From assembly GCF_058153355.1 (NCBI RefSeq), contig NZ_CM177019.1: a DNA stretch of 64,000 nt, one strand, 5' to 3'. The translations under genes and the position numbers were made by a program. Within the stretch, counting starts at the first letter, position 1. Each line of letters begins with the position of its first letter. Of this stretch, positions 6,039-57,821 are shown piece by piece. A model generated the notes under the pieces. The model was not told the DNA's origin. It ran no database searches and saw only the letters and a list, made by a program, of their open reading frames with translations.

Positions 6039-6776
6039 TTATGTATTGCTGCTGTTTGCGGCGATGATTTTCGCTACTTTTTCAGCTTGCGCATTCATCT
6101 GCATCTGACGGTATGCATTTTCCATCAGCGGCAGCGCATCACGCGTAGCCTGGGTATCCGGATAGTCGCGCAACATGCCTTCTACGCGGTTAACGACAGC
6201 AACCCATGCACCACGTTCTGTATAATACTCGGCAACGGAGTATTCATATTTCGCCAGACGATCTTTCAGGAATACCAGACGTTTGGTGGCATCGGTGGTG
6301 TACTGACTGTTCGGATAGCCGCGCACCAGTTTGGAAAAGTCACTAAACGCAGCTCGTGCATGTTGAGGATCGCGATCGCTACGGTCAACGCCAAAGAACC
6401 CTTGCAGCGCACTGTCATCCAGCGCCATATTGGTCAGGCCACGCATGTACATGACATAATCGATATTCGGATGGGTCGGGTTAAGGCGAATAAAACGATC
6501 GATGGCAGCCTGTGCTAACGGCAAATCGGCGTTTTTATAGTAGGCGTAGATGAGATCCAGCTGCACCTGCTGCGAATACGGACCAAACGGATAGCGATTA
6601 TCTAACGCTTCCAGTTGCGTTATTGCCTGTCTCCAGTTACCGTCCTGCAGCTTTTGTTGTGCAGTCGCGTAAATTTCATTTGGCGGATTATCAGGTACTT
6701 CTTCCTTTGACCCCGAGCAACCCGCCAAAAACAGGCTTAGTGTGGCGGCTGCCACCAGATATTTCATGCGCGTCAT
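6039..6776 (-). CDS. bamD: Outer membrane protein assembly factor BamD (TPR lipoprotein)
   Basis: 245-aa ORF, lipobox LFLAGCSG, recognised as BamD/YfiO. Confidence 0.95.
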
Positions 6777-52620: not shown

Positions 52621-52946
52621 AGTTTTATGTCCTGGTAGATATTTTGAATTTACCCTTTTTGAGAGGGTGGCCGGGCGCTCAAAACCGCTACCAGTCGGCG
52701 GGCGTATTTCCCTTCGGAAGGGTATTGTATTAGCCGCACGCCCGACCATTGAATTCTCAATATCGTGGACATAAAAAATCCGCATGACTGACGGGCGCGG
52801 TTTCCGCTGGTAATAAAGGTGTTTTGAGCACCATGAAGCGGAATATACCCATTGGTTATCGCGGATGTCAATGTATGCTTTTGCAAAAGGTTGTCATCCC
52901 CTTTGCAAAAACACCCGGCGTGCAACCGGGCGTCTGTGAAGGCGGG

Positions 52947-53495
52947 TTAAATCAGTGCTTCAGCATCAGCACCTTCGCTGATATCGTCGAAATCGTCAGC
53001 GCTTGCCACTCCGCCGCCAGCGAATGCATCGCCGTCTCGCAGGAACTGGACTCCGCCGAGTGAGGCATTAATGCGTTTACCGAAATTATTGTCCTGTGCC
53101 CAGATATCGATAACGGCGTTTACATAGCACCCTGCATAGGGACGTCCGTCAGCCTGAATAAGTGGCGAACGATCGCGATCAAGAACAGCTGGGCGCGCTT
53201 TGTTAGCAGCATTCAGGAAGAAATTACCGGGGAAGCCTTCATACTCTGCTTTTTCATCACCATCATGCAGGCACAGATTGAGTTTTTTCTCCAGCTGGTT
53301 ATAAATGGGCTCCCACTTCTCTCCCCATTTTTCCTTCGCTACCTGCTTCATAGCTTTACGGATTTCTTCCAGTTGTGGGTGTTTGGGTGACATTAAAAAT
53401 ACTGCGGAGAAACGTGGATCGCCTTCGCCGTTTACAGTTTTAGCTTCAAACAGAGCAGGAAAAGCTAATCTCACGTTATTTAATTTAATCTTCAT
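52947..53495 (-). CDS. DUF2815-like putative ssDNA-binding protein
   Basis: 182-aa ORF MKIKLNNVRLAFPALFEAK... with acidic C-terminal tail, adjacent to DUF2800 and polymerase. Confidence 0.6.
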   Translation of the reverse strand: MKIKLNNVRLAFPALFEAKTVNGEGDPRFSAVFLMSPKHPQLEEIRKAMKQVAKEKWGEKWEPIYNQLEKKLNLCLHDGDEKAEYEGFPGNFFLNAANKARPAVLDRDRSPLIQADGRPYAGCYVNAVIDIWAQDNNFGKRINASLGGVQFLRDGDAFAGGGVASADDFDDISEGADAEALI

Positions 53496-54007
53496 TTCAA
53501 AACTCCTATAAATTCTATGGATTCTTTTTCCGCTGCTTTACGCGCAATTACAGCTTCCGCTACGGAATTAAATAGACCTAAATGTTTTTCTTTGCCGTGC
53601 AGCTTTATATAAGCTCTCCACTTATTACGGTGACGGCAAACCCCAACGGCACCGCTTTTATTATCAGAGCGTAAGGATTGGTTAATGTTATTTTCGGTAG
53701 AGGTTACAAGTCGTAGATTAGAAAGGGTGTAATTGCTCCGATTTTTGTCTATGTGATCTACCTCTAATCCCGAGGGGATACTACCGTTATGCATAACCCA
53801 GACGATGCGATGTAACAACATTTTCCGACCGTTTACACTTACGTGATAATACCCGTCCGGCCTTATATGTCCCGCTTGCTTATCTGCATATTTAGCATTC
53901 CAGGACAAATAGTCTCGCCGGGTTTTAAAATGGGTGAGCGGACGATATTTCCATATTAAAACGCCATTGTGATACCGGAAGCATTCATTTAAATATTCTT
54001 GATCCAA
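53492..54007 (-). CDS. HNH-AP2 free-standing homing endonuclease
   Basis: 171-aa ORF with LEVDHIDKNRSNYTLSNLRLVTSTEN HNH motif followed by AP2-type domain. Confidence 0.8.
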   Translation of the reverse strand: MDQEYLNECFRYHNGVLIWKYRPLTHFKTRRDYLSWNAKYADKQAGHIRPDGYYHVSVNGRKMLLHRIVWVMHNGSIPSGLEVDHIDKNRSNYTLSNLRLVTSTENNINQSLRSDNKSGAVGVCRHRNKWRAYIKLHGKEKHLGLFNSVAEAVIARKAAEKESIEFIGVLK

Positions 54008-54021
54008 ATAACCTCCTTAAA

Positions 54022-55331
54022 TCAGATGAGGTCTGCGGTTAGCGTATCGTCGGATACGTCGTCGAAATCATTTATAGGGTTGATATTGAGTGCGGGGCGT
54101 GGGTCTGACTCGGGAACGACGGTGGGTTTACCATCAGCTCGTGTTATCAGTGCCTCGACTTTTGACCAACGGCGCGGACTGGCCTTTTTGATAAGTTTTT
54201 CGGCTTTTGTGGGGCTAATAAGTTTAAAGTCGAATACTTCTTCAGTTTTGTACCTGAACTGGTCCTTCAGAAGTGCGCGAGCTGCCTCTTCATCACTCCA
54301 GGCCCGGTTACCTTGTTTTCCTGTTACCAGTTTAAACCCCGGTACCGGATGTCCGGCATTGAGTTCATTGTGAACCCGGTCCCGTACTGCCTTTAGCCAG
54401 GATTCAATAAAGTCGGCCTGACTATAGATCTCCGCAAGCTGCTCAATGGTTAACAGAGGTACACGTGCGCTGGCATTGGTGATTATTTCGCTGACAGGCT
54501 TTGTCAGATCTTCAAAGTCGCTGGCCGCTGTTTGTAAATGCTGCATTTTCTGGGCAGTGCAAATAGCTTTTGCTTTACAGAAGCGGCACTGTTTTTCTCC
54601 AGGTATGAAGTTTTCCAGCGGTAGTGTCTCAATGCCTTCGCATTCAGCAATATTGAGAACAAGGATCGCACTGGTTGCGGCCTCCTGTGCCCGTTCACCG
54701 AAAGACTGAAGTTCCTGTACGGTTAACGACCATTCTGAAACGTGGTTGAGCCTTGGCTGGTGAATAAATAATCTTACAGTCTCAAAGTCATACAGCATGC
54801 TGAATTGTTCGAGCGCACCCAGAGCATACAGTTGTAGTTGCTCATTTTGTTCTGCATCAATGCGGACGCCTTTGCCATATTTCAGGTCGTGGATTTGTAA
54901 TTCGTTACCAGCGATGATTATGCCGTCGGCAGTTCCGAAAGATTCTTCCACCCCCGTTATATGTGAGAAATCAACACGTTGTTCAACCAATAGTTCATTA
55001 TTCTGTGCAAGAGTCCAGACCGTATCAACATACCGGCCAACGGCTTCGACCATTTCATCATCCACCTGTGGGCCAGATGTATCATCAGGATTTTCGCGAA
55101 GGGGGTATGAGCCGAGAAACATAGAAACATAGAAACATTGCATCCGGCGTAGTGTTCCGGGTGGCTTTGCCTGTTTCGTAGAACTTTTTCAGCAAGCGCG
55201 TGCGCTGCAGTGCCCTCGATTGCAAAAGTTGTTTCTTTATCCGGTTGTGTGGCCTCCAGCGCCAGACTTCCTGGGCAGCGCATCCATCGATGCGCTGATG
55301 ATGGAGAAAGTTGTGCGTGAACGTCTGGCAT
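54022..55331 (-). pseudogene. DUF2800-like PD-(D/E)XK nuclease (Cas4-like), frameshifted
   Basis: N-terminal part (from 55331) [15 protein letters not shown] and body (to 54022) with DLKYGKG and C-terminal Cys cluster lie in different frames, switching at the 8-mer repeat. Confidence 0.7.
55115..55138. repeat. Tandem repeat (AGAAACAT)x3
   Basis: Three perfect head-to-tail 8-bp copies at the frame switch in the DUF2800-like gene. Confidence 0.9.
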
Positions 55332-55333
55332 GA

Positions 55334-56236
55334 TTAACCCTCCAGTGCTTTTTCAGCCAGGGTGATTACTTCAGCGAGATTTTCATCCGTTACTTCACCA
55401 AGTTTCCTGGCTCCCTGTTTTTCCAGAATTGCAATAGCTTCTGCCCGGTAGCCCCCTTTTGCTAACTGGAGGATCAACCCTTCAGCTTGTTTGCGTAGTG
55501 CCGCGAAATCAATTGTATGGTCATCTTTGGCGTCATTATTCTGGCTGGAATTTGCTGCGTCTCTGCGTGCAAATTCTTCCTGCAGCTGAAGGTACTCAAC
55601 ACGGTTGATCTCGATATGGCCTTTTTTAAGCATCTCGTTCAACTTGCGTAAGGTGTGGAGTTCACTGGCTGCTGTGCCGGATACATTTTTGACGTAAAAC
55701 GGCCCCGTGCGTTCTCCATCTTTGTTACTGGCCTTTTTCGGCTTAACTTCATCACGCCCATCTGCAGGTGCATCAAGTAGCTGCTCGGCAAAAGCACGTC
55801 GCTCGCCGATGGTTGGCAGGTCGTCCCAGAACTTAAGGATGTTACGGGACAGGTCCAGGAGAGCAGGTTTAAGCAGCGCCCTGGCTCGTTTGACGCCCTG
55901 CAATGCGCTGTCGAGAGCATCAATCTGAACTACTCGTTTATCGCCTTCAGCATCACGGTAGGCAACAGCACGTTGCAGCATGTCTTCTGTGATAGGGGTG
56001 GCTACCGGGTAGAAACCAGCCAGTGCGATAACATCGCTGAACTCCAGATCATCCAGTGTCATTGCCGCTGACATGTTTTCAGCTTCAGTTGCTGTATCCC
56101 GACATTCCTGCACTCGTGAAATCGTGTCAGGATGCATAACAATACCTGATGCCATTGTGCGGATAAGACGTTCAAGCAGCGCATTATGTTGTGCCAGAAG
56201 TTGATTATTAAGTTCTAGACTGGTTTCTAAACTCAT
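55334..56236 (-). CDS. Hypothetical phage early protein
   Basis: 300-aa ORF, helical and acidic, no recognised motif; start overlaps upstream small ORF stop. Confidence 0.5.
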
Positions 56237-56382
56237 ACTGTGGTCCTCGCTACAAGGAGAATGAAAGTGATGATCAGACCGAGCGCAGTGGCAACGGCCA
56301 GACCGGTCATCAAATCGAAGTTTTTACGGCGATAACGGAGAACATCGCGCCCCGTCAGTCGATGGATGTGTTCAGGTTTCAT
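56233..56382 (-). CDS. Hypothetical small membrane protein (49 aa)
   Basis: Unlisted [60 protein letters not shown]; single TM helix; ATGA overlap with next gene. Confidence 0.4.
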   Translation of the reverse strand: MKPEHIHRLTGRDVLRYRRKNFDLMTGLAVATALGLIITFILLVARTTV

Positions 56383-56498
56383 CGGTTGTATTCCTTTTTT
56401 CATATCGGGGAGCGCGCTGTTGCGAGTGCGCTTTCAGACATAAAAAAGCCCGTCACTTGCGGCGGGCAAAGACTACACACAGCAATTACATGGATGAT

Positions 56499-56693
56499 TC
56501 AGTTGGTATTGTGCGTACGTGGTACCACAAGGTTGAAGCGGACACGCCAGTGCGTTGCAATGGTATGCAGGAAAGCACCACATCCAGGGCAGTGCTCATA
56601 ACATTCGTTGATTTGGTATCGTTTTGGCTTTGGTGTCTGAAGCTGTGTTTGGCAAGCAGGGCATTCACCTTTGAGCGGTTTATACGTTTTCAC
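56499..56693 (-). CDS. Hypothetical zinc-ribbon protein
   Basis: 64-aa ORF with CPAC...CPGC pairs; GAGGAAA SD; first gene of leftward early operon. Confidence 0.45.
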   Translation of the reverse strand: MKTYKPLKGECPACQTQLQTPKPKRYQINECYEHCPGCGAFLHTIATHWRVRFNLVVPRTHNTN

Positions 56694-56859
56694 GCCGTTT
56701 CCTCATTCAGTTCACTTTGGTGGTTCGGCGGCTTCGACTTGTATCAGTAGACAGTGCTTCGCCGCACCCCAAAGGGAACTTACTGACCCGTATTGCCGAC
56801 ATCCTGTCCCGCCACGGTCCCGACGCATGGTTTAGAGTCGCGCCGTTCGACTTGTGGTT

Positions 56860-56940
56860 TAAATATCTGTGTATAGATATCTTAACCTAACGCATATAGT
56901 TAAGACCTCTAAACTCACAAAGTCAAGTGTTGTAGTTAAG
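56860..56940. promoter_or_regulatory. Putative left operator/promoter region
   Basis: CTTAAC-N12-GTTAAG inverted repeat (56871-56894) and further GTTAAG at 56935; same half-site as in the cI-cro intergenic region. Confidence 0.4.
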
Positions 56941-56963
56941 AAAAGTGAACTTTTTCGGATAGG

Positions 56964-56991
56964 TAAAGAAAAGCCCGCTTAGGAAGCGGGC
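56964..56991 (-). terminator. Intrinsic terminator downstream of repressor gene
   Basis: Minus strand GCCCGCTTCC-TAAG-CGGGC followed by TTTTCTTT, immediately after cI stop. Confidence 0.7.
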
Positions 56992-57708: not shown

Positions 57709-57821
57709 GGTTTTACCCTCATATAGTTTAGTTAGCTTAACTTAATCAGGGTATCGCTTTCTTGACTTATTGGTTTAGCTTTCTTAACCTCATATAACCA
57801 TATATTTCCTGGGTAACGGTT
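57709..57821. promoter_or_regulatory. Divergent promoter/operator region between cI and cro
   Basis: Rightward TTGACT (57772-57777) and TATAAC (57793-57798); repeated CTTAAC(C) half-sites at 57736 and 57783. Confidence 0.55.

Follow-up and report, generated by a model that had tools for sequence, protein, structure and literature searches.

A 64,000-nt stretch of Escherichia coli DNA (contig NZ_CM177019.1 of NCBI RefSeq assembly GCF_058153355.1, referred to here as the window) contains a prophage with two small open reading frames (ORFs), which encode proteins of 64 and 49 amino acids (aa). Between them lies a 46-nt element made up of a seed sequence of the host small RNA (sRNA) RprA, a GC hairpin, and T6. 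The element has clear homology to the processed, active 3' part of RprA, known as RprAproc, and is a phage copy of it. We think it fairly probable that the region is an operon of the leftward early promoter (PL), with a phage-borne RprAproc mimic that acts on the host targets of RprA, plus two real small genes.

The element and the genes around it are read from the minus strand, and coordinates are those of the window. A conserved 5' motif, CTGAATCATCC (56492-56502), precedes the element, and the TGA of this motif is the stop codon of the 64-aa ORF. The 24-nt seed that follows, AATTGCTGTGTGTAGTCTTTGCCC (56464-56487), is identical (24/24) to nt 59-82 of E. coli K-12 RprA, which is the 5' end of RprAproc. 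An intrinsic terminator (56442-56467), consisting of the stem-loop GCCCGCCGCAAGTGACGGGC (56467-56448) and then T6 (56447-56442), forms the 3' end. The stretch across the phage-specific hairpin, GCCGCAAGUGAC, distinguishes the phage element from RprA. Positions 56438-56547 matched the Rfam RprA family (RF00034; minus strand, 48.2 bits, E 5.5e-5), and almost all of the score came from the 3' half. This half has the conserved 3' domain of RprA, which is the seed AAUUGCUGUGUGUAGUCUUUGCCC followed by a Rho-independent terminator, and it is predicted to fold into the same shape as the final 48 nt of RprA. The 5' half of the alignment had low posterior probability and no real identity, and neither the 5' stem-loop nor the rpoS-pairing region (approximately nt 30-58) was found there.

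The part of RprA that the element resembles has been characterized. Cleavage by RNase E gives a short form of RprA (PMC6202311). RprAproc comprises the final 47 nt; it is found alongside the full-length RNA in vivo and is active alone; it suffices for narP repression, which acts via the first 50 nt of narP (PMC9262595). An RprA60-105 species is visible on Northern blots, and csgD anti-site I lies inside RprA nt 60-97, where GCUG at nt 63-66 was confirmed by compensatory mutation (PMC3465796). The phage copy starts at nt 59/60, which coincides with the start of RprAproc, and it includes these validated pairing nucleotides of csgD anti-site Ib. Its predicted duplex with csgD positions -97 to -83 (site Ib) has 15 bp and is perfect, the same as that of RprAproc. 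The predicted duplex with the rpoS leader had an energy of -25.7 kcal/mol, compared to -26.6 +/- 3.9 for shuffled sequences and -30.7 for RprA nt 30-70. Because this is no better than shuffles, activation of rpoS by the phage element was rejected.

We examined conservation in a set of 78 loci retrieved through the 49-aa protein only, which is therefore unbiased for the RNA. The seed was present in 76 of them. Column identity was 99% in the seed, 44-53% upstream of it, and 76% in the loop and downstream. The terminator hairpin is also maintained, with 90.4% of cells paired, compensatory changes in five of seven pairs, and none of 500 shuffles as good; slid controls were also far from the real pairing. 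These data bear on an alternative that we consider unlikely, in which the seed and hairpin are only an intrinsic terminator or a mosaic "boundary" sequence spread by recombination, and the identity to RprA reflects common descent without a role in trans. The element does sit at an exact mosaic junction (homology with phage vB_EcoM-606R2 begins at 56495), and in several phage types no terminator comes between it and PL. Also, the TGA of the CTGAATCATCC motif ends several unrelated ORFs in other phages and one plasmid, and none of the seed targets within the 64-kb window, phage included, scored above shuffles. However, a terminator needs only a hairpin and a U-run, and here it is the hairpin that varies (76%), whereas the single-stranded 18-24 nt upstream of it are invariant (99%). 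This conserved part is the experimentally defined pairing region together with the 5' end of RprAproc (PMC3465796, PMC9262595), and it recurs in unrelated settings, including after thyA, near tRNA genes in three contigs, and on plasmids. A pure terminator or boundary module would explain the junction at 56495 but not an invariant single-stranded part next to a drifting hairpin. The left edge of the identity between phages and RprA is at nt 59 or 60 in most loci, with the longest identity running from nt 52 to nt 98. A boundary this sharp at the RNase E cleavage site is a hint that selection, or even capture, acted on the unit in the form of the processed RNA.

The element is not confined to this prophage, but is shared by hundreds of phages and by some plasmids. 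The exact 24-mer was found in 63 IMG/VR viral contigs, and none of the 63 had E. coli-type RprA sequence directly upstream of the seed. When only the 3' 17-mer was used for the search, [A/C]ATTGCT was upstream in 122 of 139 matches; with only the 5' 15-mer, the matches continued with TCTT and then a variable GC stem. In total, viral contigs yielded 86 distinct elements, whose upstream contexts numbered at least 46, and a hairpin and T-run came after nearly all of them. In lytic, N4-like Erwinia phages, the unit comes directly after the stop codon of the thymidylate synthase gene thyA; one of them, Ea9-2 (L070 1499-1544), has the exact seed and a terminator, which overlap the start of an annotated 56-aa ORF. 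In three other loci, a tRNA gene on the same strand precedes the seed-terminator by 100 to 500 nt (L050 7224-7461, L062 5848-6264, and L064 5355-5982). In L023, L056, L057, and L062 it is directly after T-arm-like sequences, at which ARAGORN calls no tRNA. It follows PL in phage LLS. On large plasmids it comes after an 86-aa ORF, and we counted 27 places on plasmids of E. coli genomes. One of these large plasmids, pABWA45_1 (NZ_CP022155.1; L072 3001-3059), has the seed AATAGCTGTGTGTAGTCTTTGCCC, a perfect 7-bp hairpin, and T6 right after the 86-aa hypothetical ORF, and the neighbours are a RES/Xre toxin-antitoxin pair and umuDC. The CPS-53 prophage of E. coli K-12 was considered as a tractable copy and rejected, because the seed is absent. 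Full-text searching of the available literature turned up no description of a phage or plasmid element that resembles RprA.

This distribution invites a broader proposal, which we put forward tentatively and with some doubt. Phages and plasmids of Enterobacterales might share a mobile "RprAproc cassette", consisting of a core sRNA seed and a terminator, which is placed 3' of many unrelated units and imposes part of the Rcs/RprA envelope-stress output. Such a cassette would, for example, shut down csgD and curli and alter narP, without RpoS activation. Its insertion sites would include PL operons, thyA of a lytic phage, places near tRNA genes, and plasmid ORFs.

Chromosomal E. coli sequence, with an rrn operon, the pheA leader, rseC, and rnc, takes up approximately the first 45 kb of the window, and both small ORFs are within the prophage. 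This region is present in 152 of 5,426 complete E. coli genomes. Strains with this type of prophage include E. coli O55:H7 CB9615, ETEC H10407, and TB06051. The initial annotation had placed the small genes at the head of a leftward early operon, downstream of a leftward operator (OL) and PL, and our analysis agrees. Upstream of them on the same strand is a repressor gene of the S24/helix-turn-helix type (57708-57016, minus strand), and a terminator after it (56973-56991, minus strand) shields PL from transcription of the repressor gene. Divergent from the repressor side are the genes for Cro and a DUF5906 primase. Repeat and inverted-pair analysis identified three 16-bp operator-like sites, GTTWAG-N4-CTWAAC, at approximately 56873-56888, 56899-56914, and 56935-56950 (total span 56871-56950), and two related sites between the repressor gene and cro (57726-57741 and 57773-57788). 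The putative PL (56926-56898, minus strand), read from the sequence, has the -35 hexamer TTGACT (56926-56921), a 17-nt spacer, and the -10 hexamer TTAACT (56903-56898), which would place the start site near 56891. One of the operator-like sites falls inside the spacer. A promoter consensus scan did not list PL, because its -10 fits at only three of six positions. The OL/PL label is reasonable because the operator-like sites coincide with a TTGACT-17-TTAACT promoter.

PL is followed by a leader of approximately 190 nt. Approximately 40 nt downstream of the inferred start site, the leader contains a 72-nt putL-like antiterminator RNA (56781-56852, minus strand). It is 82% identical (E 5e-10) to sequences of HK022, HK75, and O276, in which it is annotated as "putL antiterminator RNA". 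Among 11 sequences including HK022, stem I covaries (AGTCG/CGACT versus AGACG/CGTCT), as does the inner stem II, which encloses the conserved loop AGGAT and appears as GACA/TGTC, AGCA/TGCT, GGCA/TGCC, or GTTC/GAAC. These compensatory changes maintain the two stem-loops of a put RNA, of which the RNAalifold consensus recovers only part. The put RNA of HK022 makes RNA polymerase terminator resistant in cis and needs no phage protein. Its suppression of downstream terminators depends on the zinc-binding domain of the RNA polymerase beta' subunit. A 38-aa ORF at 56712-56828 overlaps putL and has no PHROG hit, so we treated it as probably spurious. Phages that have the RprA seed terminator and no putL have a conserved hairpin, GCCTGATGTGGTTAAAAGCAGGC, just downstream of PL (L071 1190-1215, which is phage LLS, and L002 at approximately 6200-6260). 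This hairpin might serve as a nut- or put-like site of another kind.

On the minus strand, OL/PL is followed in turn by the putL RNA, a variable cargo gene, the RprAproc seed and terminator, a small hairpin, the 49-aa gene, a 300-aa gene, and replication genes. The operon head is a variant of the PL-putL-nun layout of HK022. Both have a homologous putL directly downstream of PL, then an accessory gene, then a terminator. The gene after putL in HK022 is nun, whereas in the window this slot has the unrelated 64-aa zinc ribbon gene. The terminator after nun also has no RprA seed, unlike the one in the window, and the downstream genes in the window form a PolA-type replication module. The best explanation is that the region is where the PL operon begins in an E. 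coli prophage with RNA-mediated antitermination of the HK022 type.

These features suggest how an RprAproc mimic might be made and used. Upon induction or infection, PL would fire and some transcripts would stop at the seed terminator. They would then be trimmed at the invariant AUU junction to an RNA of approximately 47 nt, which, by its U-rich stretch, hairpin, and U-tail, would resemble sRNAs that bind Hfq. Such an RNA could act on host RprAproc targets, such as site Ib in the csgD 5' untranslated region (5'UTR), and it would have no rpoS-activating domain. In the remaining transcription, putL-modified polymerase would pass the terminator into the 49-aa, 300-aa, and replication genes. The terminator would also ensure that only putL-modified polymerase reaches the replication genes, so that these genes, like those for the 49-aa and 300-aa proteins, would be transcribed from PL only.

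Several observations weigh against this proposal. PL is expected to be repressed in a lysogen. Also, putL-modified polymerase is expected to pass the terminator, which makes the yield of a discrete 3' end uncertain. There is no promoter-like site on the minus strand within 56500-56700. In the window, the hairpin has a C-A mismatch and only a T6 tail, and its fold does not outperform shuffled sequences (z -0.51). At 48.2 bits, the Rfam score falls short of the RF00034 gathering threshold of 70 bits. This also explains why annotation pipelines missed the element, and RefSeq annotates nothing under it at the chromosomal matches listed. At the proposed processing site, AUU is invariant at +1 to +3, and the RNase E position -2 is a purine only in some contexts. 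It is U in the window, so we do not claim a full RNase E consensus. Finally, 2 of the 78 loci in the 49-aa-protein set have no seed at all, and in L240 (417-480), a locus with a more distant homologue of the zinc ribbon protein (P0004), the 5' motif CTGACATCATCCCTGTAATT and the terminator are kept and CCTTGCCAAGCCCTTT replaces the RprA seed. The L240 arrangement may mean that the cassette is a scaffold for different seeds.

The two small ORFs were the subject of the initial annotation, which described a 64-aa CxxC...CxxC protein and a 49-aa peptide with a single transmembrane segment as small, unannotated genes. Their coordinates, the cysteine motif, and the hydrophobic stretch were all confirmed. 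The suggestion that they lack annotation was correct only in part. The 49-aa gene is annotated as a hypothetical protein in RefSeq relatives. In E. coli TB06051, the Prokaryotic Genome Annotation Pipeline (PGAP) predicted this same 150-nt gene and did not predict the 64-aa gene, which is present in some GenBank records. The two ORFs do not form one simple unit, because the RprA-seed intrinsic terminator separates them, with the 64-aa gene in a variable slot and the 49-aa gene in a conserved module. By their conservation in relatives, their ratios of nonsynonymous to synonymous substitution rates (dN/dS), and their ribosome-binding sites, both are real protein genes.

The 64-aa gene (56499-56693, minus strand) has a GTG start and a Shine-Dalgarno sequence, GAGGAA (56704-56699), which is 6 nt upstream and is conserved. 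It encodes cysteines at positions 11, 14, 31, 35, and 38. C11, C14, C35, and C38 (CPxC...CPxC) are invariant in all five homologue clusters, whereas C31 is not, and the invariant residues of the family are KPLKGxCPxC...KPxRY...CPxC..L..IATHW. The family is rare, because exhaustive protein searches returned only these five clusters (98, 89, 76, 60, and 49% identity). The dN/dS was 0.16-0.38 compared to the copies from E. coli (L067) and Enterobacter bugandensis (L066). AlphaFold2 predicted a five-stranded, all-beta zinc ribbon (predicted local distance difference test score, 85.8), with the two CPxC knuckles on a small beta fold that are typical of generic zinc ribbons. No database match was informative. 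A Foldseek search of the PDB with the model had no match with E <= 0.001 (the top one was LysW, E 0.14), a PDB sequence profile search returned nothing, all Pfam zinc ribbon matches were under their cut-offs, and tblastn against 50,697 phage genomes had no match. A precomputed Pfam tag on homologue P0005, "Phage_Mu_gp6", was not reproduced when we rescanned Pfam.

A very improbable alternative is that the 64-aa ORF is not what it seems, and either is not a gene, with 56499-56693 being the non-coding 5' part of a longer RprA-like RNA, or encodes an N-like antiterminator that is required for passing the terminator. The first version takes its cue from the Rfam alignment, in which the full RprA model spans 56438-56547. 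However, the 5' half of that alignment is the part with low posterior probability and no real identity, and a non-coding sequence does not fit the dN/dS, four invariant cysteines, conserved Shine-Dalgarno sequence, and confident AlphaFold2 model. The second version takes its cue from the position of the ORF, which is first and before the first terminator, as N is in lambda. However, the ORF is absent from relatives that have the same terminator, and the window has a putL RNA, which in HK022 works without a phage protein and makes an N-like role for the first gene unnecessary. On these grounds, an N-like role was rejected. The 64-aa gene occupies a variable cargo slot between putL and the terminator, which in close relatives holds a 33-aa acidic ORF (L073), a 54-aa ORF, a 91-aa ORF, or nothing. 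With the slot this variable, and by analogy with nun in the same slot of HK022, we infer that the 64-aa protein is a swappable accessory or "moron"-type gene product rather than a regulator that the operon needs.

The 49-aa gene (56233-56382, minus strand) has an ATG start and a Shine-Dalgarno sequence, AAGGA (56396-56392). As had been proposed, it is coupled to the next gene. Its stop codon overlaps the ATG of the 300-aa ORF (55334-56236) in the sequence GTATGAGT, with an ATGA overlap. The 19-residue Kyte-Doolittle maximum is 2.56, at residues 27-45, and the N-terminal part has seven positive and three negative charges. The peptide is a full-length member of phrog_11981 (PHROG 11981; E 1.5e-36, residues 1-49 of 49), a family without a known function. 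Its dN/dS was 0.30 compared to E. coli and Enterobacter homologues. Among the fetched loci there were 42 variants of the peptide, in which the N-terminus MKPEHLHRLTGRDVLRWRR is strongly conserved and the membrane segment varies but is always hydrophobic. The gene belongs to the conserved replication module, to which it is tightly linked and coupled in 80 loci. The 300-aa protein, encoded by the first large gene of that module (minus strand), is a full-length member of phrog_6784 (E 5e-179), which is another family without a known function. We infer that the 49-aa peptide sits in the membrane in an N-in orientation, as a partner of the 300-aa protein.

The initial annotation had also suggested that such small early proteins act in host takeover, Kil-like toxicity, or lysogeny control, which would place them at the functional centre of the locus. 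In favour of this view, the two are small early proteins that evolve under purifying selection, the 49-aa peptide is predicted to be inserted into the membrane, and in HK022 it is the exclusion factor Nun that is encoded in the 64-aa slot. However, searches of Pfam, PHROGs, NCBIfam, PADLOC, and the PDB revealed no similarity of either ORF to a Kil-like, toxin, defence, or lysogeny-control family. Linkage and coupling of the 49-aa gene to the replication module in 80 loci fit a structural partner better than a toxin, and the 64-aa gene is dispensable, being swapped for other ORFs or for nothing in close relatives. We regard this explanation as improbable, and somewhat more so than the terminator or boundary sequence considered above. 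The small-ORF finding itself looks more ordinary, with one gene being exchangeable cargo at the nun position of a put-type operon and the other encoding a conserved, probable membrane partner of the replication module.

If the element does produce an RprAproc mimic, how does it compare with known sRNAs? It resembles RprAproc in its first 24 nt, which are identical, in having a single-stranded seed, a U-rich stretch, a GC hairpin, and a U-tail, in its predicted fold, and in its complementarity to csgD site Ib. It differs from RprA by having no 5' stem-loop or rpoS-pairing region, by its hairpin sequence, and by a score below the Rfam gathering threshold. RprA also has its own RcsB-dependent promoter and a core-genome locus between ydiK and ydiL, whereas no Rcs-type promoter was found for the phage element, which belongs to the 3'UTR of an early gene in a prophage. 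In concept, it comes closest to sRNAs that derive from 3'UTRs and to StxS, which is made when a phage transcript is terminated. StxS is a regulatory by-product of a phage transcript that is subject to antitermination (PMC7547250), and CpxQ is derived from a 3'UTR and processed from mRNA (as described in PMC5861431). The RNA proposed here would also be a by-product of termination or processing. However, StxS is a product of the late PR' transcript with a sequence of its own, whereas the phage element copies the seed of a core host sRNA. DicF, AgvB/AsxR, and HnrS are other sRNAs of mobile elements that act on host networks (PMC5069750, PMC4104026, and bioRxiv 10.1101/2025.11.27.690950). AgvB and AsxR sponge a host sRNA by imitating an mRNA target, whereas the phage element mimics the sRNA itself, in the sense orientation. 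DicF and HnrS are unrelated to it in sequence and location; HnrS was rejected as a match because it is a different RNA, in late genes.

Known phage sRNAs either have their own sequences or mimic mRNA targets to sponge host sRNAs. If expression and activity in trans hold for the element described here, it would represent direct sRNA mimicry that is widespread on phages and plasmids. Mobile elements would gain a handle on biofilm, curli, and nitrate-response regulation. The element would also be a natural separation-of-function allele of RprA, having the RprAproc seed without rpoS activation, which bears on the role of the processed form.

Some other features of the operon were noted. The small hairpin between the terminator and the 49-aa gene, AGCGC...GCGCT (56411-56432, minus strand), was read by eye. 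In a by-eye comparison of variants, its stem pairs change from G-C to G-U to A-U (AGCGC/GCGCT, AGCGC/GTGCT, and AGCAC/GTGCT). The replication module downstream of both small ORFs includes genes for DUF2800, DUF2815, Nmad5, and a family-A DNA polymerase (PolA). The DUF2800 gene (PD-(D/E)XK nuclease; within 54022-55331, minus strand) is split into two overlapping ORFs at approximately 55131-55138 by an 8-bp tandem duplication. There are three copies of ATGTTTCT in the window compared to two in E. coli TB06051, and the split could be a frameshift, a pseudogene, or a slippage site. Adjoining DUF2800 is a 171-aa ORF with an HNH-like motif (53492-54007, minus strand), which has no counterpart in the TB06051 relative. 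At the corresponding position, L067 has a 172-aa ORF tagged NUMOD4/HNH_3 that is of similar length, with the two compared by position and length only. The 171-aa ORF may encode a homing endonuclease. Finally, the replication module contains a match to sRNA-Xcc1 (Rfam RF02221) at 52661-52747 on the minus strand, with a score of 68.2 bits, which is above the gathering score.

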